Virus record (IMG/VR): IMGVR_UViG_2698536657_000012
Coordinates: 1-10,433 of that record
DNA: 10,433 bases
Reading direction: 5' to 3' (one strand)
DNA from: a virus
Lineage: Duplodnaviria > Heunggongvirae > Uroviricota > Caudoviricetes
In this document: piece by piece, positions 600 to 10,140 of the stretch
Layout of the letters: each line of letters begins with the position of its first letter
How positions within the stretch are numbered: the first letter of the stretch is position 1
Translations under genes and position numbers: made by a program
The notes under the pieces: model-generated
What the model saw: the letters and a program-made list of their open reading frames with translations, nothing else
Database searches by the model: none
What the model was told of the DNA's origin: nothing

Positions 600-2558
600 T
601 TATGCGGCTGCTCCAGCTTTGTTTGCTTTAACTTCCACCGTATCAATAAGTACAGGGTAAGTTTCAGCAGTACCTGTAATATCCGTAATGACAAACCTGT
701 TGAGTTCATTAGCAGTATTGGCCCATTTCACCAGGTCAAACGCCTGTCCATCCACGCCATCAAACACCGGAGTAACATTAATGCTGTTACTGCCCTTAAA
801 TTTAAATGCAAGCGTATGCCAGTCATGGTCGAATGCGCCAAACGTGCCAAGTTCTTTTTGTTGATTACCTGTATGATGGTATGCAACATCAATACTGGCT
901 TTATCTGTCTGGACAAAGAAAGAACTCAGATAGCCTTCACCACCCTCACCCGGCCATTCCGCTATTCGCCAGTACAAACCAAAGGCATACTTGTTTCTGG
1001 TTGTTTCAAGATTGACGTTTTCAGGGATTTTAAACCGGACAGCAATTTCCCCGCCTTTTTCCAGTAACAGTTTTGCCTTGTCTGCAGCAATATCACAGTA
1101 CATTGACCAGGATTTCGCGCTGTTATTTTTCTCAATTCGCAGAGCTTTATTGCCGCTGTCATCAACCAGTGTGCGTCTGCCATCCATACCGTCCCAGCCA
1201 TAAGGTTTCAGCTGATTGTCCGAAGCTTTTTTGGCATCGTAGAGAATGACAGACTCCGAAGTGGCAACCGTATTTTCTTCATTATGAGCTTCAGAAGCTG
1301 GCGATGAAGAAGATGTTGGCGCCTCTTCCGGTGCTGTTACTTCTGTAATACCATTCACAAAGGCAGATGATTTACCTGCATAGGTTACAATTGCTGTTGC
1401 CAGTCGATCCGAAACGATACCTCGACGAGCCCATGAGCTAAAATGGCTATCTCTGTACTGTGACGTCCATGTTGTTGAACTATCACGCCATCTGGAGCCA
1501 TAATATCCAATAGCTTCAATATCCGGGTCTTCCTCGGGCTTATTGGTTGTAACATTTGCATTATTTTCATCCGTCATAAACGGAACAAAATAAATAGCCT
1601 TATCCGTTTTCCCTTTGTAACCACCGTACACAACTTCATATTGAGACGCGTATTTGGTTTTCCAGTAATACGTGGTATCGCCGCAAATCCAGGGGACTTT
1701 CGCAGCACTACCATATACGCATTGAGCATCATATTTCTCTAACTCAGTGCGGAAACCTTCAACCATTTTCAGGAAAAGTGCATTGTGTTCTGCATGTTTT
1801 CCGGCAGCCATATCTGCCTCACCCTGCATCCAGACAACGCCAAGAAATACGTTCTTTTTGTTTTTGTCTAATGCAGCTTTGGTTCTGGCAACCAGATCTT
1901 TATATAGAGGTGTCCCAAGCCCCCATTTTGATGATGCGTCGATTGCGCCAGAGGCTTCATAATACTGTCCTTCTGTTCCGGTACTAAAGCCTGATCCGCC
2001 ACGTCCACAAGGGACCAGCAGAATACCTGCATTAGCAGGGATAAATGGCAGTAGTTTCTTACCAATATGCAAACCCTGGCCAACACAACCGTATTCTGCA
2101 TCTTTAGCTTTGGGGTGTTTTAGCCTGGTCATATCTTCAACATCATGAAGACAATGGTCTGCCGGAATGATGTCGTTATATTTACAGGGAGTACCTCCCG
2201 GTGTCACCGTACTGCGACGCGCCAGCTGCTTAATACGCGGGTCCGGACGGTCATATGTCTCCGGCAGCGGAAGGCCTTCACCATATGCCATGCTGTTTGA
2301 CTGGCCAGCCAGCGTAATCACGTAGTAATACTCCGGGTCGCTGGTGGCGCTGATAACTGTGCCTTCTCCATCCGACGGCTTCACCACCACAGGTGTGGTG
2401 ACATCACCTTCCGCCGCAATGGCCTGCATCAGGGTATAAGGCGTGATGGCCACCGGGCTGCCAAATGGCTGCCACCCCTCCTTCAGTTTTTGAGTCAGTC
2501 GCTCCGCAAGGTCTGACGGCGACGCCGCCCTGACCACGTCATAGTGTTTAAATGCCAT
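600..2558 (-). CDS. nanS-p: Prophage-encoded sialate (9-O-acetyl-Neu5Ac) O-acetylesterase NanS-p: N-terminal DUF1737-like region, SGNH/SASA esterase core with GQSN motif, C-terminal carbohydrate-binding-like region
   Basis: 652-aa ORF with ATG at 2556-2558 and strong SD (GGGAGG); ITLAGQSNSMAYGEG esterase motif; N-terminus MAFKHYDVV typical of the family; position downstream of the tRNA/toxin locus as in Stx prophages. Confidence 0.88.
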   Translation of the reverse strand: MAFKHYDVVRAASPSDLAERLTQKLKEGWQPFGSPVAITPYTLMQAIAAEGDVTTPVVVKPSDGEGTVISATSDPEYYYVITLAGQSNSMAYGEGLPLPETYDRPDPRIKQLARRSTVTPGGTPCKYNDIIPADHCLHDVEDMTRLKHPKAKDAEYGCVGQGLHIGKKLLPFIPANAGILLVPCGRGGSGFSTGTEGQYYEASGAIDASSKWGLGTPLYKDLVARTKAALDKNKKNVFLGVVWMQGEADMAAGKHAEHNALFLKMVEGFRTELEKYDAQCVYGSAAKVPWICGDTTYYWKTKYASQYEVVYGGYKGKTDKAIYFVPFMTDENNANVTTNKPEEDPDIEAIGYYGSRWRDSSTTWTSQYRDSHFSSWARRGIVSDRLATAIVTYAGKSSAFVNGITEVTAPEEAPTSSSSPASEAHNEENTVATSESVILYDAKKASDNQLKPYGWDGMDGRRTLVDDSGNKALRIEKNNSAKSWSMYCDIAADKAKLLLEKGGEIAVRFKIPENVNLETTRNKYAFGLYWRIAEWPGEGGEGYLSSFFVQTDKASIDVAYHHTGNQQKELGTFGAFDHDWHTLAFKFKGSNSINVTPVFDGVDGQAFDLVKWANTANELNRFVITDITGTAETYPVLIDTVEVKANKAGAAA

Positions 2559-2755
2559 GAATCCTCCCGGTCGGGATAATGTTGTGAGTCAGATAAGGGG
2601 CGGGCTGAAGTCCGGAAGTTACAGGACAATGACAGAAGGAAGACTACAGCCCGCAATACGAAAAAGGCCGCGCAGTTGCGCAGAGTGATTACTGTCGGGT
2701 ATTATTCGCCAGCTGAAAAATTGATTACTTCACGTTTTGTTGTTTATTCCTTGCT

Positions 2756-2784
2756 GCCCGCATCTCACCATGCGGGCTTTTTTT
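2756..2784 (+). terminator. Plus-strand intrinsic terminator: GCCCGCAT-ctcacc-ATGCGGGC followed by TTTTTTT
   Basis: Perfect 8-bp stem, 6-nt loop, T7 run immediately 3' on the plus strand. Confidence 0.5.
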
Positions 2785-2788
2785 ATCC

Positions 2789-2815
2789 ATAAGAAAGCCC
2801 CTCCGGAGAGGGGCT
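2789..2815 (-). terminator. Minus-strand intrinsic terminator T1: AGCCCCTC-(4-nt loop)-GAGGGGCT followed by UUCUUAU; marks the end of repeat copy 1
   Basis: Perfect 8-bp GC-rich stem; U-rich tract only on the minus strand. Confidence 0.5.
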
Positions 2816-3045
2816 GGAGTAGCGCTATGTACCGTTCATTGCATGATGCCGGGTGCCTCCCGGTGAGTTCAGCCCGGTGCCACCGAACCCGCGTCATTCT
2901 CGCTAACGATCATCAGAGACCATACCGTACACCAGCCGCCCCTCCGCACAGGGGGATTCATCATGCAGAAATTTTTTAACAAATTCTCAGTCGGGAAGAC
3001 AACCTTCAACTGACTGAATTGTGAGCAACATAGCATTTAACGGGG
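2796..3045. repeat. Copy 1 of a tandemly duplicated ~250-nt structured non-coding element (period ~487 bp)
   Basis: Shares with copy 2: AAAGCCCCTCCGGAGAGGGGCTG (23/23); TGCCGGGTGCCTCCCGGTGAGTTCAG (26/26); GAACCCGC; GCCCCTCCGC(A/T)CAGGGGGATTCA(T/C)CATGC; TTTTAACAAA; CTGAATTGTGAG ... CGGGG. The same order and spacing are preserved. Confidence 0.7.
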
Positions 3046-3059
3046 AACCTGTTTTCTGC

Positions 3060-3090
3060 AGTAAAAAGGCCCACCGGAGCGGACGGGCCT
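3060..3090 (-). terminator. Minus-strand terminator-like hairpin (AGGCCC ... GGGCCT) followed by UUUUUAC
   Basis: 6-bp outer stem plus inner CCG/CGG pairs; T5 on the minus strand; lies in the spacer between the two repeat copies. Confidence 0.35.
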
Positions 3091-3275
3091 GGAAGGATAG
3101 CGGTCATGTGATGCCGGTTTCCCGGTAACTCAGCACCGGTATCTGAGTCAACGTTTTCTCTACTGGGTCATTTCCGATACGCCCTGCCTGCTGACAGGCT
3201 TTCATCACATCTGAAAATATAGCACCCTGACTGATACTGTAGTACCCAAGGTTCCAGAAACTGTGATGTATCCGG

Positions 3276-3303
3276 CACAGAAAAGCCCCTCCGGAGAGGG
3301 GCT
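3276..3303 (-). terminator. Minus-strand intrinsic terminator T2: same AGCCCCTC/GAGGGGCT hairpin as T1, followed by UUUUCUGUG; marks the end of repeat copy 2
   Basis: Identical 8-bp stem to copy 1; U-rich tract on the minus strand only. Confidence 0.5.
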
Positions 3304-3530
3304 GACGCTGCGTATCTGTATCATCATGCGCATGGTGCCGGGTGCCTCCCGGTGAGTTCAGTATCAGCACCTGAACCCGCACAGAAAGGATAAGGGATGT
3401 AACCAAACACCTGTCGCTGATATGCCCCTCCGCTCAGGGGGATTCACCATGCCAGTTTCTTTTAACAAACTCCCCGCAAATCAGACAACTGTCAACCGTC
3501 TGAATTGTGAGACATTTAAAATTTTCGGGG
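3284..3530. repeat. Copy 2 of the tandemly duplicated ~250-nt structured non-coding element
   Basis: See copy 1; conserved blocks are identical in order and offset by 486-489 nt; intervening sequence has diverged. Confidence 0.7.
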
Positions 3531-3581
3531 CAACAGGAAGACAATCATCACGACACCGGCAACCAGCGACCGGCACCAGAT

Positions 3582-4517
3582 TTAACGTATGTGCACACAA
3601 CCTGAACCGGCATCAAAAAACAAACCGTGCACTGACAGAAAACGGGAAACCTCCGTCCGCTGATCATCACTCATTAAGGACCACACAAAGGCGTTATGCT
3701 CATCTTCAAGTTTCCGTCTTCTTGTTTGCCTTACAAGCAACTCAGCCGTCACCTGTACAATGTCAATGACCTCCTTCTCTTCAGCAATGTACGGCCTGTT
3801 CCAGTTGTCTGTGTTAATCTTCTCCGTCACCGGCGCTGACTTTTTGCAAGTTTCCCCATTAAACCCGACGCCATAAACAACAACATCATCGCTTTGCTTT
3901 TCGTTATCAATAATGACGAATAATACAGAAACCGATGTATCAGCGAACCCGCCTGAAATCTGAACCAACTCAACAACGCGGTTGCCAAAATACTGACGCA
4001 TTGCCAGCTCACCACGCCTGTAACCAACCCCGGGAAAGCACAAAAAAAATGAAAATCTTGCCTTCATGCTCGCCAGAACATAAAACGCGTCATCCAGAAC
4101 ACCGGAGGTCTTTTTATAAGGCATCATCGCTGAAATCTTCTCCCTGATATCCGCGCTCTGTGCTTTGTACTGTAGCGAAAAAGGCGGATTCATGATGACA
4201 CAATCGAACGTGTCCGTGTCACTGACATCATCGATGGCGTTGAAGAAATTTTCATTGACCGTCTTCACTGTGGCATCCGGGAAATTATCCGGGATATGCA
4301 CCAACGGAGAGGCCTGTATATCCACAGCATACAGACTTCCCACCGTGAGAAACTGCTCCAGTTGCCCGGAGCCACACGCACCATCAAAAATACTCAGGGG
4401 CAGATCACCACAATATTCCCGCACTTTTTCAGCGACAAACCGACGCAAAGGAACGGACGTGATGTACTCTGCGTATTTTCTGGCGACATCGCGATTATTG
4501 GACTCCTGAAAAACCAT
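3582..4517 (-). CDS. Putative orphan gamma-class N6-adenine (amino) DNA methyltransferase-like protein (311 aa from ATG at 4517; 331 aa if the GTG at 4577 is used)
   Basis: Motif I FDGACGSGQL followed about 65 aa later by motif IV NPPF (order I then IV = gamma class); no adjacent restriction gene; neither candidate start has a clear SD. Target (DNA versus RNA) cannot be told from sequence alone. Confidence 0.6.
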   Translation of the reverse strand: MVFQESNNRDVARKYAEYITSVPLRRFVAEKVREYCGDLPLSIFDGACGSGQLEQFLTVGSLYAVDIQASPLVHIPDNFPDATVKTVNENFFNAIDDVSDTDTFDCVIMNPPFSLQYKAQSADIREKISAMMPYKKTSGVLDDAFYVLASMKARFSFFLCFPGVGYRRGELAMRQYFGNRVVELVQISGGFADTSVSVLFVIIDNEKQSDDVVVYGVGFNGETCKKSAPVTEKINTDNWNRPYIAEEKEVIDIVQVTAELLVRQTRRRKLEDEHNAFVWSLMSDDQRTEVSRFLSVHGLFFDAGSGCVHIR

Positions 4518-4602
4518 TTGTGAAAGGCTCTGTGGTTGATATGCGCCGGGCGTGGCGCGGAGGCAAAAAAGGCCCACAAAAGCGAGCCAGGAAAAATAAG
4601 TG

Positions 4603-4679
4603 TGGTGCGTTGTACTGGATTCGAACCCGTGACCGATTGCTTAGAAGGCAATTGCTCTGTCCGGCTGAGCTAACAACGC
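4603..4679 (-). tRNA. argO: tRNA-Arg (anticodon UCU)
   Basis: 77 nt; acceptor stem GCGTTGT/ACAACGC, discriminator A and encoded CCA; D-arm GCTC...GAGC; anticodon loop CTTCTAA; T-loop TTCGAAT. Gene symbol assigned from the ileZ-argN-argO order known in Stx prophages. Confidence 0.85.
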
Positions 4680-4692
4680 AGTGTACAGATAA

Positions 4693-4769
4693 TGGACCGC
4701 CATCGAGGACTCGAACCCCGCGCAACCAGCTTCGAAGGCTGGCGCTCTATCCCGATGAGCTAATGGCGG
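4693..4769 (-). tRNA. argN: tRNA-Arg (anticodon UCG)
   Basis: 77 nt; acceptor CCGCCAT/ATGGCGG with encoded CCA; anticodon stem CCAGC/GCTGG with loop CTTCGAA; T-arm CGGGG-TTCGAGT-CCTCG. Confidence 0.8.
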
Positions 4770-4776
4770 TATGTGA

Positions 4777-4852
4777 TGGTGGCCCTTGCTGGATTTGAAC
4801 CAGCGACCTGGCGATTATGAGTCGCTCGCTCTCACCACTGAGCTAAAGGGCC
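4777..4852 (-). tRNA. ileZ: tRNA with CAU anticodon, ileX-like (tRNA-Ile2, lysidine type) rather than Met
   Basis: 76 nt; GGCCCTT acceptor stem, anticodon loop CTCATAA, T-loop TTCAAAT, encoded CCA; overall close to E. coli ileX as recalled from memory. Confidence 0.8.
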
Positions 4853-4861
4853 GGGCGCAGG

Positions 4862-4890
4862 ATAATAACGGTACGTAACTAATCCTGCAA
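4862..4890 (-). promoter_or_regulatory. Candidate sigma70 promoter for the tRNA cluster: -35 TTGCAG, 17-nt spacer, -10 TATTAT, about 8 nt upstream of the tRNA-Ile 5' end
   Basis: Read on the minus strand: TTGCAGgattagttacgtaccgtTATTATcctgcgcc followed by the tRNA; -10 matches 5/6. Confidence 0.45.
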
Positions 4891-4892
4891 TA

Positions 4893-5951
4893 TCATCCGT
4901 TCTGACTGGCTAAATCCTGAACTTCCCTGACCGTCTGCTCAAAACGTTCAGTCTCCAGCTCAACGCCAGTTGCACGACGCCCCAGCGCCATCGCTGCTTT
5001 GACTGTCGAACCCGACCCCATGAAAAAATCTGCAACCAGGTCACCCGGACGACTGCTCGCGCTGATTATCTGCTGCAGCATTTCTGCCGGTTTTTCGCAC
5101 GGATGTTTCCCGGGATAGTACTGCACCGGTTTATGCGTCCACACATCGGTGTACGGCACCTGCGCCGTCACACCGAAATACCGCCGCAGATGCTTATATT
5201 CACTCTGCAGTTCCGTATAGTGTCGGTTCAGTTCACTGTATGTGCTGACCAGTTGGTGATGTGGCTTTTCCAGTTCTCCGCGCTGATGCTTCTCTTCTGC
5301 CACCCGGGCAAACAGCGCCTGTAATTTCAGATAATCGCTTTCGTCCGGTAGCTGCCACTGACTGGCACTGAACCAGTGCGACACCATGTTTTTCTTTCCT
5401 GTGGCATCAGCAATCTGTTTTGCCGTTATCCCCAGGGCAGCACGTGCATCACGAAAGTAAGCAATCAGCGGGGCCATCACATGCTGTTTCAGTGCCCTGC
5501 CCTTCGCCTCATACCCGGCATCTTTCGGACGATACGGCCCCTGATAATGTTCCGCGAACAGAATGCGCTCTGTGGCGGGGAAATACGCCCTCAGGCTTTC
5601 CTTGTTGCACCCGTTCCAGCGTCCGGACGGCTTCGCCCAGATAATATGGTTCAGCACACTGAAGCGTTCACGCATCATGATTTCAATGTCAGATGCCAGG
5701 CGATGGCCACAGAACAGGTAAAGACTTCCGGCAGGTTTCAGCACCCGCCAGAACTGCGCCAGACACTGGTCCAGCCACTTCAGGTAATCATCGTCGCCCT
5801 TCCACTGGTTATCCCAGCCCTCAGGCTTCACTTTAAAGTACGGCGGGTCCGTGACTATCAGGTCAACAGAATTTTCGGGTAACGACCGGATAAATTCCAG
5901 GCAGTCGGCGTTGATTAACTCACAACTGGATATTTTTACAGTATTAAGCAT
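4893..5951 (-). CDS. DNA methyltransferase, beta-class N6-adenine/N4-cytosine family (PF01555-like), 352 aa
   Basis: N-terminal motif IV (SVDLIVTDPPYF) and C-terminal motif I (DFFMGSGSTVKAA): the order IV then I is the beta-class hallmark. No adjacent endonuclease ORF. Confidence 0.88.
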   Translation of the reverse strand: MLNTVKISSCELINADCLEFIRSLPENSVDLIVTDPPYFKVKPEGWDNQWKGDDDYLKWLDQCLAQFWRVLKPAGSLYLFCGHRLASDIEIMMRERFSVLNHIIWAKPSGRWNGCNKESLRAYFPATERILFAEHYQGPYRPKDAGYEAKGRALKQHVMAPLIAYFRDARAALGITAKQIADATGKKNMVSHWFSASQWQLPDESDYLKLQALFARVAEEKHQRGELEKPHHQLVSTYSELNRHYTELQSEYKHLRRYFGVTAQVPYTDVWTHKPVQYYPGKHPCEKPAEMLQQIISASSRPGDLVADFFMGSGSTVKAAMALGRRATGVELETERFEQTVREVQDLASQNG

Positions 5952-6084
5952 GGATCATTAAGCCTGTCTCTGATAGGCTCATTCTGCTTTTGCGCAAAGC
6001 AGTGGGCCTGAGGTTTGCTTGTGATCCGGACGCATGAGCAGATGGCTGGTGAGTGCCCCTAACACCCACCAGCCGCCCATTTAC

Positions 6085-6115
6085 CACAAATAAAAAAGCC
6101 TTCAGGACTGAAGGC
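6085..6115 (-). terminator. Minus-strand intrinsic terminator: GCCTTCA-GGAC-TGAAGGC followed by UUUUUUAUUUG; overlaps the stop codon of the wHTH ORF
   Basis: 7-8 bp stem and a long U-tract on the minus strand. Confidence 0.55.
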
Positions 6116-6299
6116 GTCTGTAACAACCGAACTGATAGTCTGCCAGACCCGCCATAACAAGCTGGGTCAGTATTAACTGGCAGCGTTCACGTGAAAGATA
6201 AGTATTCTGCGCAATCTCCCCGACTGTCGCCGGTTCGGTGGCACTTAATTCATTAAACACCACTCTGGCGGTTTCTGTCATATCCTGCTGTTTCAGCAT
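6102..6299 (-). CDS. Small (about 65 aa) winged-helix/HTH-like protein, putative DNA-binding regulator (MLKQQDMTETARVVFNELSATEPATVGEIAQNTYLSRERCQLILTQLVMAGL...)
   Basis: ORF-track ORF 6102-6335 has a TTG at its 5' end; the first ATG has an SD (AAGGGAAAAAG). The TVGEIAQ...LSRERCQLILTQL segment looks like an HTH recognition unit. Family not identified. Confidence 0.5.
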   Translation of the reverse strand: MLKQQDMTETARVVFNELSATEPATVGEIAQNTYLSRERCQLILTQLVMAGLADYQFGCYRRLQS

Positions 6300-6420
6300 G
6301 TCTTTTTCCCTTTTCCGGTTAACGTGACACACCAATAACTCTTGTCAAAAAAGCCAGCAAGCTGAAAGACCGGTATTCACCACCACCAGCGCGTTTACTG
6401 TACTGACGAGATTTTCGGAC

Positions 6421-6451
6421 ATAAAAAAAACCACCTGGCGGTGGTTTTTTC
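6421..6451 (-). terminator. Strong intrinsic terminator, tR'-like: CCACC-GCCA-GGTGG followed by U8 on the minus strand (flanked by A8 and T6, so the hairpin is bidirectional)
   Basis: Perfect GC-rich stem with long A/T runs on both sides; located about 60-70 nt downstream of the candidate late promoter. Confidence 0.7.
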
Positions 6452-6493
6452 TTACTTTGCCATCGCGTACAAAATCGGCAAAATATCAGATTT

Positions 6494-6528
6494 ATACGAA
6501 ACATACGCGATTTAATTGACTTTTGCAA
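6494..6528 (-). promoter_or_regulatory. Candidate late promoter (pR'-like): -35 TTGCAA, 17-nt spacer, -10 TATGTT, read on the minus strand; overlaps the last codons of the Q-like ORF
   Basis: Hexamers each 4/6 to consensus with ideal spacing; position relative to the upstream ORF and the downstream terminator fits the lambdoid Q-pR'-tR' layout. Confidence 0.4.
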
Positions 6529-7201
6529 TATCTCGTCGTGAAAAGGTCGCTTTTTGTTGCGCTCTTATTTTCACGGAGCAAATCAAGGATTCTCTATCGA
6601 GGCGCTTAAAAATATCGCACATCTCACGCCAGTAGTTCGCATAATTATGGCTCCAGTTATCAGGCTTAACTCCACACAGTCTGGCAAGCTCCTGTCTCTG
6701 GTAGACCTCACACCCGGTAACCCATCCTCTGACATCCTGTGCCGCCAGCCAGATCAACTTCTTCACACGCTCCAGCGTTTTCACTGCAATTTTTCTGGAG
6801 CCGGACTGAGTTTTAAATTCACTCCACACCCACTGTGTTATGGTGACCTGATCTTCCCAGCAAACATTTCCACTGTAGCACCACAGTAACCACGCCTTCT
6901 GATGTTCTTCCAGTTCCAGAACGGCACGCCGCCACGATGATGTTGCAAACTCAACCGGACTGACCAGAGCAATTGACGTCCCTTTCGCCAGTGATTGTTT
7001 GCCCGGGATCGGTGGATTATCCCGCGTGATCATTTTTCCGGTTACCTCATCGCGGTAACGAATTTTTTTACGTCTGTAACGCCCTGTATCGAACAGGGCA
7101 TTTTCCTGCCAGGCTTCCAGCTGGCCTTTTGTCGACCCACTGAGATCCGCAGTGGCAATCATGAGTTGCTCACGAACAAACTGTAAATACTGGCTATTCA
7201 T
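6512..7201 (-). CDS. Q-like late antiterminator candidate, 229 aa from ATG at 7199-7201 (functional call is positional only)
   Basis: The ORF itself is solid; its start overlaps the rusA stop (ATGAATAG). It lies between rusA and the pR'/tR'-like module, where lambdoid phages encode Q, but no lambda-type Cys4 zinc motif was recognised; a Roi-like or other nin-region protein is possible. Confidence 0.55.
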   Translation of the reverse strand: MNSQYLQFVREQLMIATADLSGSTKGQLEAWQENALFDTGRYRRKKIRYRDEVTGKMITRDNPPIPGKQSLAKGTSIALVSPVEFATSSWRRAVLELEEHQKAWLLWCYSGNVCWEDQVTITQWVWSEFKTQSGSRKIAVKTLERVKKLIWLAAQDVRGWVTGCEVYQRQELARLCGVKPDNWSHNYANYWREMCDIFKRLDRESLICSVKIRAQQKATFSRRDIAKVN

Positions 7202-7556
7202 GCACACCCACCTCTGTAATTCTTATCTCCAGCCGTCCACCAGATACTGGCTGGCCACGTACAATATTGATTTCATCAAACTGCTCATCGTCCATTAACA
7301 TTCCCGCATGCGTCAGCGCATCCAGCGGCGCTTTCAGAATATTGTCCAGGTCACGACGACGCTTATCCGGTGGCTCTGCAATAATTTTTATTGCCAGCCG
7401 TCCGGACAGTCTTAATTTCAGCCGCTGCTGGCGAACAATAAGCGCCACTGCACGGCGATAACGCTCCCCGGCTTTTGATACAAAATATGTGCTGCCACGG
7501 CGTCGCCAGTAAGTGTTCACCGTCGGCGGGTAAGGTAAAACCAAATCTATGAGCAT
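7194..7556 (-). CDS. rusA: Holliday-junction resolvase RusA (crossover junction endodeoxyribonuclease), 120 aa
   Basis: ATG with strong SD (AGAGGTGA); conserved RusA blocks (PPDKRRRDLDNILKAPLDALTHAGMLMDDEQ... GGRLEIRITE) match E. coli RusA as recalled from memory. Confidence 0.88.
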   Translation of the reverse strand: MLIDLVLPYPPTVNTYWRRRGSTYFVSKAGERYRRAVALIVRQQRLKLRLSGRLAIKIIAEPPDKRRRDLDNILKAPLDALTHAGMLMDDEQFDEINIVRGQPVSGGRLEIRITEVGVHE

Positions 7557-7568
7557 CAGTCACCTCTT

Positions 7569-8618
7569 TTACCCGAGCACGCCAGTCGCAAAGGCGTGAT
7601 CAAGAAAACGAAAAATTAACTCAATCTGAGAGCCGTACTTTTTCTCAAACTCCAGCGGGTCTGCATGAAGTTCGTTGTGGTGCTCCCGGCACAACGGTAG
7701 CGTGAAAATATCGTGGGCCTTTGTTCCCATTCCCCCCTGACCATGGCCAATCAGGTGATGCGGATCGTCGGCTGGCTTACCACAACACGCGCACGGCTGT
7801 GTCTTAACCCAGCGCGTGTATTTCTCATTAACCCAACGGCGACGTTTAGGCCGCCTCATGAACGATTCAGGAGACTCCGGATCAACGGCGATACTGACAA
7901 CCGTTTTTTTCTGTGGTGGATTTTGTTGCTGGTGGACGTGAAGTGGCAGCGCAATATTTTTTGTGCGCTGCTTCAGTATGCTGATGGCTGTCTGTTCTCC
8001 CGGTACGATGTCACTCTCACGGTATACGGAGCGGATTTTTCCCACCGGTAATCCCAGTGAACGACGCAATACAGACTCCGGAAGCGCATCAGCCACCTGA
8101 TTGCAGACCGCCCACCAGCATAACTCTGCCAGCGACAGTTCCCGCTCCTGTGTGCCATTCATTGCGTGACGTATGACATCAATCATCCAGGCTGCCAGAT
8201 TCTGCTGAGCAAGTTGATCGAGTGATTCTGATGTCTGGTCGCGCTGCTGGTTGTCACAGTGCCAGCACAACACCATCGCGCCGGTACCGTAACGGTGAAT
8301 GACGGTTTCGCTGTGATGATAATCGCCATGTGGCCACTGGCAGGATTTCACGTGACGTAATAACCAGTCAGACAGTGCACCTGCACCCCCCGCAGCACGA
8401 ATCACCCGTTCGTTGCTGAAAAATGGCAGTAATGTTTTATCCTCTGCCAGCGACTGTCGAACGGCGGGAACGACTCCGGACGGCAGACCGCGCATGTTTT
8501 TCGGTTCCGGCTCCACCAGTATTCTGCCGTTATGGAATGCTGACATTGATTCACGGCCCGGCTTTAGGAGCACCATCCCGAGTTCTGGCACCAGAACAGG
8601 TCGAAGTAATACCCGCAC
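7569..8618 (-). CDS. DUF968-family prophage protein (YdfU-like), 349 aa, with a C-terminal Cys/His-rich HNH/NinG-like motif
   Basis: GTG start preceded by a perfect SD (GGAGGtaacGTG) that overlaps the upstream ORF's TAA stop; C-terminus PCACCGKPADDPHHLIGHGQGG...LCREHHNELHAD. Confidence 0.75.
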   Translation of the reverse strand: MRVLLRPVLVPELGMVLLKPGRESMSAFHNGRILVEPEPKNMRGLPSGVVPAVRQSLAEDKTLLPFFSNERVIRAAGGAGALSDWLLRHVKSCQWPHGDYHHSETVIHRYGTGAMVLCWHCDNQQRDQTSESLDQLAQQNLAAWMIDVIRHAMNGTQERELSLAELCWWAVCNQVADALPESVLRRSLGLPVGKIRSVYRESDIVPGEQTAISILKQRTKNIALPLHVHQQQNPPQKKTVVSIAVDPESPESFMRRPKRRRWVNEKYTRWVKTQPCACCGKPADDPHHLIGHGQGGMGTKAHDIFTLPLCREHHNELHADPLEFEKKYGSQIELIFRFLDHAFATGVLG

Positions 8619-8619
8619 G

Positions 8620-8898
8620 TTACCTCCAGATGCGCTGCTGGAATGTGCGGGACGGACGCGGTGGGCGTTCGGAATAAGGGAGCCTGACGGAGATTATCCA
8701 GTGGCGACGGTCAAGACTGAGAGCTTTCTCAAACTCATACCCGCGTCTGCGGTAGTTCTGAATCAACCATTCGGCCTGTTCTTCAGTGCATGGGGCATGC
8801 TGGAACCAGTCAGATTTGAATGCATGAGAACGCCGCCCGTGCCTGCTGGCAGGGGCGGCGAAGTTATCCGAATTGTGTAATTTTGTATCGTGCGCCAT
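8620..8898 (-). CDS. Hypothetical nin-region protein, 92 aa from ATG at 8896-8898 (ORF-track version starts at a TTG at 8979)
   Basis: Its stop is translationally coupled to the DUF968 gene start. No motif recognised; positionally comparable to the small genes next to ydfU in Qin-like prophages. Confidence 0.45.
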   Translation of the reverse strand: MAHDTKLHNSDNFAAPASRHGRRSHAFKSDWFQHAPCTEEQAEWLIQNYRRRGYEFEKALSLDRRHWIISVRLPYSERPPRPSRTFQQRIWR

Positions 8899-9003: not shown

Positions 9004-9438
9004 TTAAGCCGAGCCCGGCACATACCAAGGGAAATAAATATCACTTAACGACGTGTGTTTGAGAACAGAGTCCACCGCCAATTTCAACGTCAACGACATG
9101 AAATTCTCAAAATACCATGAATTTTCTACAAAGAACTTTTCATCGATCGCCCCTCCATTAATGATATCAAAGTCCGTAATCAGCTCCATCTTTAACTCAA
9201 AAGATGGTTCTTCATCACCGACAGGCTCTCCCTCTCTATCAGGATACCCTTTTATCGATGGCGAAAACCCAATCCGAAACCAACTGGTACCATCATCATC
9301 ACGCCCCGAAGCAAATTTAAGTTCCTCAATCGAGACCTTAAAAAAACCTCCATCATCACTAGTGTTATCCCTGAAACTACTGGAAACTATATCGAAACCA
9401 GCATACTTAATATTTTTTAACATCAGTGACGTATCCAT
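9004..9438 (-). CDS. Hypothetical acidic protein, 144 aa, third gene of the hicA-hicB operon
   Basis: ATG at 9436-9438 lies 16 nt upstream of the hicB stop (overlapping genes); SD-like GAGG about 10 nt upstream; D/E-rich; AT-rich codon usage like hicAB. No recognisable domain. Confidence 0.6.
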   Translation of the reverse strand: MDTSLMLKNIKYAGFDIVSSSFRDNTSDDGGFFKVSIEELKFASGRDDDGTSWFRIGFSPSIKGYPDREGEPVGDEEPSFELKMELITDFDIINGGAIDEKFFVENSWYFENFMSLTLKLAVDSVLKHTSLSDIYFPWYVPGSA

Positions 9439-9899
9439 CGCTCACTAACCTCTTTCCTTTTTGTTCTTACTGAAGATGGAACAACATAATTAAGAAGAAA
9501 TACGCCATCCCAAACAAGTGTATCTGCCGTTTCTTTATTTTCGGGATGAGAATGAACTTCTTTTTTACCTGCAATCTTTTCTTCAATGGCTTTACGCACA
9601 TAATCATTAAGCGTCGTCTTATCCATCATTGCAGCCAAAAACGCTTTCTTATGAAGATCGCGACCTATTCTGATGTTAAAAGTACCACTCATTGGTTTAT
9701 CAGGAGATTTACCCAACTGCTTGCATGTATCGAGGTAATCTGTAACAGCCTCTTCAAAAGCTGCCCTTAACCCATCCAGTGTTTCCGCTTCGTAGGTTAC
9801 AACATCGTTTACACACTGAATTTTCCCATGAAGTATGTTATCTTCAAGAGAAATCTCAATGCTACCAAAATAACCTTTATAACTCAGCACATTACTCAT
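9423..9899 (-). CDS. hicB: HicB-family antitoxin (COG4226-like N-terminal domain fused to a C-terminal ribbon-helix-helix-like DNA-binding segment), 158 aa from ATG at 9897-9899
   Basis: YKGYFGSIE...EDNILHGKI...YEAETLDGLRAAFEEAVTDYLDTCKQLGK..P.KP.SGTFNIRIGRDLHKKA matches the conserved HicB pattern as recalled from memory; its ATG overlaps the hicA stop (ATGAGTAA). Confidence 0.78.
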   Translation of the reverse strand: MSNVLSYKGYFGSIEISLEDNILHGKIQCVNDVVTYEAETLDGLRAAFEEAVTDYLDTCKQLGKSPDKPMSGTFNIRIGRDLHKKAFLAAMMDKTTLNDYVRKAIEEKIAGKKEVHSHPENKETADTLVWDGVFLLNYVVPSSVRTKRKEVSERWIRH

Positions 9900-10140
9900 A
9901 ACTATCAATCTCATCCAAAAGATTTTTCACTTCTTTAAGCACATATCCTTTAACAATATTGCCAGGATGTGGGCAATGAAAAGCCACAAGCCTTCCATTA
10001 CCATTGGCAAACTTCCTTCTTGAGCCTGAGCCGGTAAGCATTTCGAAACCATAATGCCCAAGCAACGTCACGAGTTCATCCCATGTAAAATCCTTTGGAA
10101 GCTGATTCAGACGCCCCCTCAACTTCTCTTTTTTGCTCAT
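9892..10140 (-). CDS. hicA: HicA-family mRNA-interferase toxin (YcfA-like), 82 aa
   Basis: Small basic protein, WDELVTLLGHYGFEM...GSGSRRKF...FHCPHPGNIVKGYVLKEV, consistent with the HicA fold motif; located immediately upstream of and overlapping hicB in the canonical toxin-first order. Confidence 0.75.
   Translation of the reverse strand: MSKKEKLRGRLNQLPKDFTWDELVTLLGHYGFEMLTGSGSRRKFANGNGRLVAFHCPHPGNIVKGYVLKEVKNLLDEIDSYE

Follow-up and report, generated by a model that had tools for sequence, protein, structure and literature searches.

The DUF968 gene and its surroundings

The window (the whole stretch of viral DNA that was analysed, 10 433 nt) is, judged by its sequence, a lambdoid prophage and is colinear with Stx2-converting phages (93% identity, 62–66% coverage in three pieces). 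Its genes form a series on the minus strand in the order HicA/HicB, a 144-aa ORF, a small Rem-like ORF, DUF968, RusA, Q, a DNA methylase, three tRNAs, a second methyltransferase and a NanS-p-like esterase. The gene studied here occupies positions 7569..8618 (minus strand, a direction that the initial annotation had left unstated) and appears in the ORF list with 349 codons, a GTG start (8618–8616) and a TAA stop (7571–7569). Its product had been described as a DUF968/YdfU-like protein, and the profile searches agree. The Pfam model DUF968 (PF06147) matched residues 160–346 over profile positions 1–171 of 171 (E 3.3e-78, 262 bits against a cut-off of 27.8), PHROG 96 ('HNH endonuclease') matched over the full length (E 4.5e-175), and the DNA was 97% identical to a RefSeq 'DUF968 domain-containing protein'. 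NCBIfam gave no match for the protein. The GTG start is backed by the N-terminus 'M[RK]xLLxP', which is conserved in homologues of 26–79% identity. Given the Pfam score, the full-length PHROG 96 match and this conserved N-terminus, comparison at the sequence level indicates that the frame is not a chance ORF.

The gene is tightly packed between its neighbours, in keeping with the translational coupling proposed in the initial annotation. A Shine–Dalgarno sequence, GGAGG (8623..8627, minus strand; read directly from the sequence), lies 4 nt ahead of the GTG, within the last two sense codons of the upstream ORF (...TGG AGG TAA), and abuts the TAA of that ORF (8622–8620); a single base separates this TAA from the GTG. 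At the other end, the TAA of the DUF968 gene is followed by AAGAGGTG and then by the ATG of rusA (7556), a gap of 12 nt. The rusA gene (7194..7556, minus strand; Pfam RusA PF05866, E 2.5e-17) encodes a Holliday-junction resolvase and has a Shine–Dalgarno sequence of its own. Its end is overlapped by the gene for the late-gene antiterminator Q (6512..7207, minus strand; Pfam Phage_antiter_Q PF06323, E 7.8e-84). The upstream ORF (8620..8898, minus strand) is Rem-like (phrog_1212, E 6e-37) and comprises 92 aa from its ATG; RefSeq has a 279-nt hypothetical CDS at this position. Further upstream lies the 144-aa ORF (9004–9438, minus strand; phrog_19522). Neither of these two ORFs had a Pfam match, and no function was assigned to either. 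By its position ahead of rusA and Q, the DUF968 gene belongs to the delayed-early right operon.

The remainder of the window yielded several further observations. An ORF for a 331-aa SAM-dependent DNA methyltransferase (3582–4577, minus strand; flanks 2560–6500) is found where Stx2 phages carry stx2AB. At least 80% of the segment 3400–4620 is held by only 12 of 5426 complete Escherichia coli genomes, and here the stx locus seems to have undergone a rare exchange of cargo. Three tRNA genes [Arg(tct), Arg(tcg) and a tRNA with a CAT anticodon; 4603–4852, minus strand] lie between the methylase and the ORF at the stx position and match the tRNA cluster of Stx phages. The early region contains a HicA toxin/HicB antitoxin pair (9423–10140, minus strand); the closest E. 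coli relative has ParDE and RelBE pairs there. A 652-aa protein (600–2558, minus strand) with DUF1737, a SASA esterase domain and DUF6645 is an esterase of the NanS-p type typical of Stx phages.

Relatives of the DUF968 protein were present in 4097 of 5426 complete E. coli genomes, at a median of two and up to nine places per genome. DUF968/YdfU is among the commonest uncharacterised prophage genes of E. coli and is part of the early operon of Stx-like phages. Five records, labelled Veillonella, Geobacteraceae, Caulobacter and Actinomycetes (MAGs) and Vagococcus (L008, L012, L018, L057 and L063) contain DUF968 loci of the enterobacterial type at 50–84% identity; these off-taxon labels probably reflect binning or assembly contamination. 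In the database proteins P0125, P0144, P0172, P0190, P0192 and P0245, the N-terminal 150–300 residues of DUF968 appear fused to tail-tip J, tail-fibre, portal or capsid domains. We rejected these as genuine fusions; most likely they are prophage deletion scars or assembly chimeras.

Domain architecture and sequence relatives

The motif C-x-CCG...PHH...C-x-EHH-x-ELH, singled out in the initial annotation as resembling an HNH or NinG-type nuclease, occurs exactly in residues 276–318 (C276-A-C278-C279-G-K-P-A-D-D-P286-H287-H288 ... C310-R-E-H313-H314-N-E-L-H318). It forms the centre of a predicted HNH/His-Me core (aa 276–320; 7659..7793, minus strand) with a predicted zinc site made up of C276, C279, C310 and H313 and the catalytic-type residues H288 (end of the first beta-strand), D303, H314 and H318 (helix). 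In the AF2 model of the protein (pLDDT 86.5), whose pTM of 0.54 leaves the arrangement of the domains relative to each other uncertain, a confidently predicted beta-hairpin followed by an alpha-helix forms the metal finger, with the catalytic histidine at the end of the first strand and a metal-binding residue in the helix. The beta-beta-alpha-metal fold, the absence of which had been named as the outcome that would overturn the HNH assignment, is thus present in the model. Two helices (321–328 and 331–344, pLDDT ~97; within aa 321–349, 7572..7658, minus strand) pack onto the core and align with the C-terminus of YbcO; E325, G329 and Q331 are conserved in them. The core is preceded by a basic stretch (aa 250–275, 'ESFMRRPKRRRWVNEKYTRWVKTQP'; 7794..7871, minus strand) recognized by its composition (9 K/R in 26 residues), its conservation (P257 and K258 are nearly invariant) and a BLASTP alignment with part of the basic N-terminal segment of P1 Ref.

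Searches of the PDB by sequence returned nothing significant, whether the query was the protein itself, its full-length profile or the profile of the N-domain, and the link to solved structures was obtained by fold comparison and hhalign only. The solved structures nearest to the model of the C-terminal cluster were HNH nucleases, the nearest being Ref. Among the aligned relatives, position 288 is His in 86 of 93, position 314 in 76 of 100 and position 318 in 74 of 100; position 303 hardly varies at all (Asp in 89 of 91). We scored 83 representatives at the eight zinc and catalytic-type positions. The commonest patterns were CCCH with HDHH (34) and CCCC with HDHH (17), and 51 of the 83 keep a complete zinc site together with HDHH. 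Two types of decay were seen among the other variants: about a dozen representatives keep HDHH and have lost zinc ligands (e.g. CTSA, CTRE), and about eight keep the CCCC or CCCH ligands and have lost catalytic histidines. The modelling demonstrates, at the computational level, a Zn-stabilised His-Me (HNH) nuclease domain in the C-terminal ~100 residues, with a complete set of catalytic-type residues.

This assignment re-derives a classification that was already known and published in 2016–2017. A connection of YbcO with Ref and HNHc_6 was drawn by Kaur and Subramanian (2016; PMC4999995), and Jablonska et al. (2017; PMC5714182) placed DUF968 and DUF1364 in His-Me finger 'group 7', naming YdfU and YbcO (PDB 3G27), noting RusA, Q and antirepressor neighbours and hypothesizing that they act in recombination, as NinG and Ref do. 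Gram-positive 'DUF968' proteins had earlier been reported to combine an Orf-like with an HNH domain (Curtis et al. 2014; PMC4118853). A literature search found no published function or experiment on any YdfU-type protein. What remains of value is the biochemistry, the link to Ref and Gp16 and an unannotated N-terminal zinc module.

This module occupies the N-terminal half and has a conserved Cys/His cluster of its own, which the initial annotation had missed. The protein begins with a small beta/alpha subdomain (aa 1–77; 8388..8618, minus strand; AF2 pLDDT 78–96) that carries the conserved 'LLxPxxQxxLGxVxLKPG' and G48 in the alignment and has no family assignment. It is followed by a predicted zinc treble clef resembling a His-Me finger (aa 78–127; 8238..8387, minus strand; predicted ligands C93, H101, C118 and C121), a helical subdomain (aa 128–190; 8049..8237, minus strand; helices 131–152, 163–172 and 181–188), within which the Pfam DUF968 model starts at aa 160, and a linker of low confidence (aa 191–249; 7872..8048, minus strand; pLDDT 45–64, below 50 at 226–237) that is variable in length and gappy in the alignment. 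Residues 1–159 are covered by no Pfam model and are as conserved as the C-terminus.

In an alignment of 32 sequences, C93 and C118 were invariant and Q94, W119 and D122 nearly so; N123 is conserved. Positions 93, 101, 118 and 121 were all Cys or His in 72 of 80 sequences, and positions 101 and 121 covaried (H/C 36, C/H 26, H/H 10, C/C 0), as is expected from one metal site with a movable histidine. Modelled alone, residues 1–192 reached a pLDDT of 92.1, with the ligands on a knuckle, a beta-hairpin (105–118) and a helix (119–125), the latter two at pLDDT >90. No conserved catalytic histidine was found in this treble clef, the candidate positions being variable. An hhalign comparison of the N-terminal with the C-terminal half for internal duplication was not significant (E 0.11 and 0.08, probability <1%); its register matched the order of knuckle, hairpin and helix, which we retain as a hint only. 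The N-domain profile likewise gave no significant hhalign match to YbcO, Ref or Gp16, Foldseek found no match to the N-domain in BFVD at E <0.5, and no NinB match was detected in the module. These predictions show, by computation, a separate module of ~190 residues consisting of a second four-ligand zinc treble clef, whose fold is probably His-Me-like, and a helical bundle. It seems that the front half of the protein contains another copy of the HNH fold, probably an inactive one.

Among characterised proteins, the best profile match was Gp16 of Staphylococcus phage PhiNM1 (hhalign probability 95%, E 3.8e-8), with which the DUF968 protein has the motif CGKP..D..H..G.G..D..LCREHHNE.HA in common; H288, H314 and H318 align with H157, H185 and H189 of Gp16. 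YbcO (probability 85%, E 6e-6) and P1 Ref (probability 78%, E 1.9e-5) followed, and BLASTP aligned Ref over 106 aa including the basic segment (34% identity, E 1e-5). With lambda NinG, hhalign gave a probability of 6% over 18 columns. Of the resemblance to an HNH or NinG-type nuclease claimed at the outset, the HNH part is borne out by the model, the conserved residues and the nearest structures, and the NinG part is not upheld. The Pfam models RecA_dep_nuc (PF16786; Ref itself scores 172.7 bits), YbcO/DUF1364 (PF07102) and NinG (PF05766) gave no match at E ≤0.01. The model HNHc_6 (PF16784; PhiNM1 Gp16, phiETA Orf20) scored 21.9 bits over residues 271–320, below its cut-off of 26.6, and the NinB/Orf-like N-terminal domain of that family was not found. 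On these comparisons the DUF968 protein is a sister family of HNHc_6 and not a member, its C-terminal domain is computationally shown to be homologous to PhiNM1 Gp16, YbcO and P1 Ref, which are its close relatives, and NinG (Rap) is not a close one.

Locus context and possible functions

We examined 80 DUF968 loci (47–89% identity), labelled mostly as different Enterobacterales species, that had been retrieved with a 12-sequence alignment. The constant landmark is a Q homologue, which in at least 59 of them comes next after DUF968 on the downstream side. A RusA gene lies within 4 kb in 50 loci and is missing from 30, and its place varies: directly downstream of DUF968 in three loci (as in the window), directly upstream in six and ~700–950 bp upstream in most of the remainder, the intervening gene being a Rha/KilAC antirepressor in the one such locus inspected. 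A Rem-like ORF lies upstream of DUF968 in 20 of the 80. Neither a NinG homologue nor a separate YbcO turned up in any of the loci. In DLP12, the single-domain YbcO sits in the same slot (order YbcO–RusA–YlcG–QuuD). DUF968, YbcO and NinG thus seem to be interchangeable genes at the end of the nin region. The linkage to RusA is frequent and not obligatory; since RusA is absent from 30 loci and changes position, a fixed partnership is not required.

The most likely function, which we favour by a modest measure, is that YdfU-type DUF968 proteins are Ref/Gp16-like nickases acting in recombination or replication. The C-terminal domain would nick or cleave DNA using one divalent metal ion, and the basic stretch together with the degenerate N-terminal finger would supply binding to DNA or to a partner. 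Like Ref and Gp16, the protein would act early in lytic growth on recombination or replication intermediates such as D-loops or RecA-coated DNA. In this way it would feed into recombination-dependent replication, and the junctions that arise would be left to RusA to resolve. It is the gene neighbourhood and the homologues that suggest the role in recombination, and dependence on RecA cannot be inferred from the fold. The sub-threshold or missing Pfam matches to all four characterised families (HNHc_6, RecA_dep_nuc, YbcO and NinG) count against this explanation.

Rather unlikely, in our estimate, is a RecA-independent, structure-specific branch endonuclease like lambda Rap (NinG), the reading towards which the initial annotation leaned; it would itself recognise D-loops, forks or junctions and act upstream of RusA or redundantly with it. 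DUF968 occupies the slot near Q in the nin region that NinG has in lambda, and with no NinG homologue within 4 kb in any of the 80 loci, the two resemble alternative cassettes. Both DUF968 and NinG are His-Me fingers (PMC5714182), and Gp16 cleaves plasmid DNA without RecA (PMC12817073). However, the sequence relationship to NinG is negligible, and the nearest structure is Ref rather than a branch-specific enzyme. Moreover, a dedicated junction resolvase co-occurs, which makes a second resolvase-like activity less obviously needed.

We regard it as improbable that the protein is a non-catalytic zinc-finger factor, binding DNA or regulating the early operon, in which the HNH fold is kept as a mere scaffold. 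The 51 representatives with intact sites, the near-invariance of D303 and the full HDHH set and CCCH site of the window protein itself speak against this reading. Six of the 45 full-length representatives (e.g. P0196, P0214 and P0247), however, have lost H288, H314 or H318 and retain the zinc ligands and the N-domain with its metal site, and the N-terminal finger is by appearance already catalytically dead. In Gp16, the substitutions H157A, H185A and H189A relieve toxicity only partly (PMC12817073). One relative is annotated as 'phage transcriptional regulator', but this annotation has no experimental basis.

Equally improbable is a selfish or conflict role, as a free-standing homing endonuclease or as a nuclease aimed at rival phages or at the defences of the host. 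Mobility is common among HNH genes, a published warning against deducing roles from position exists for lambdoid phages (PMC12315714), and toxin–antitoxin pairs and methyltransferase cargo genes lie nearby. Nevertheless, from one genus of Enterobacterales to the next, at 47–89% identity, the gene keeps its syntenic place immediately upstream of Q, unlike homing genes, which insert sporadically, and the operon junctions are tight. The several copies per genome, which could also suggest mobility, are explained by the presence of several lambdoid prophages, and PADLOC returned no match, leaving a defence-system role without support. A terminase-associated HNH function was rejected, the gene lying in the early operon beside Q and not near packaging genes, with Ref, Gp16 and YbcO as its relatives.

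Comparison with known systems

The protein from the window belongs to the same family as YdfU of the E. coli Qin prophage (Pfam DUF968; His-Me finger 'group 7') and has the same full-length architecture (349–352 aa), with ~80–84% identity to Qin-type copies. Qin-type loci and the window have the Rem-like ORF, RusA and Q as neighbours in common. In the window copy rusA lies directly downstream, whereas Qin-type loci run straight to Q; otherwise nothing essential differs. YbcO of DLP12 and phage 82 (PDB 3G27) is a single domain of 96 aa, to which the window protein adds ~250 N-terminal residues, and the two are assigned to different Pfam families. Lambda NinG (Rap), a branch-specific endonuclease, resembles DUF968 in belonging to the His-Me finger superfamily and in its place in the nin region near Q, but without a meaningful relationship in sequence.

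The HNH nuclease Ref of P1 depends on RecA: it cleaves D-loops, attacks only RecA-bound DNA and requires its basic N-terminal segment for binding DNA (PMC4330346). Its structure (PDB 3PLW) contains an extra segment with H153 that has no counterpart in the window protein, and its N-terminus is disordered, whereas the window protein has a folded module of 190 aa.

Gp16 is a nickase that binds RecA, and its zinc-ligand mutants C148A, C181A and H184A are inactive (PMC12817073; NAR 2026). Its motif architecture (Pfam HNHc_6; CxxC-x8-H ... CREHH-x3-H) is identical to that of the window protein, C145, C148, H157, C181, H184, H185 and H189 corresponding to C276, C279, H288, C310, H313, H314 and H318. 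Both are early-operon phage genes with RusA encoded in the same region. In PhiNM1, the Gp16 gene (3052–3723) lies ~3 kb upstream of the RusA gene (6706–7113) in the same operon, which echoes the linkage of DUF968 or YbcO to RusA in enterobacterial phages. The two proteins differ in their N-domains (NinB/Orf-like in Gp16, a zinc treble clef with a helical module in the window protein) and in their hosts (Firmicutes versus Enterobacterales).

These comparisons suggest a more specific version of the nickase reading, which is tentative and in our view doubtful: YdfU-type DUF968 may be the lambdoid counterpart of P1 Ref and PhiNM1 Gp16, a RecA-directed nickase of tandem His-Me-finger build whose N-terminal pseudo-HNH zinc module targets or regulates the active C-terminal HNH domain. 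If so, it could shape recombination-dependent phage replication, SOS signalling and quinolone–phage synergy, since copies occur in about three-quarters of E. coli genomes, including Stx-type prophages. A nuclease that exploits RecA in the manner of Ref and Gp16 would be a widespread modulator of recombination, of phage replication and possibly of antibiotic-induced killing.
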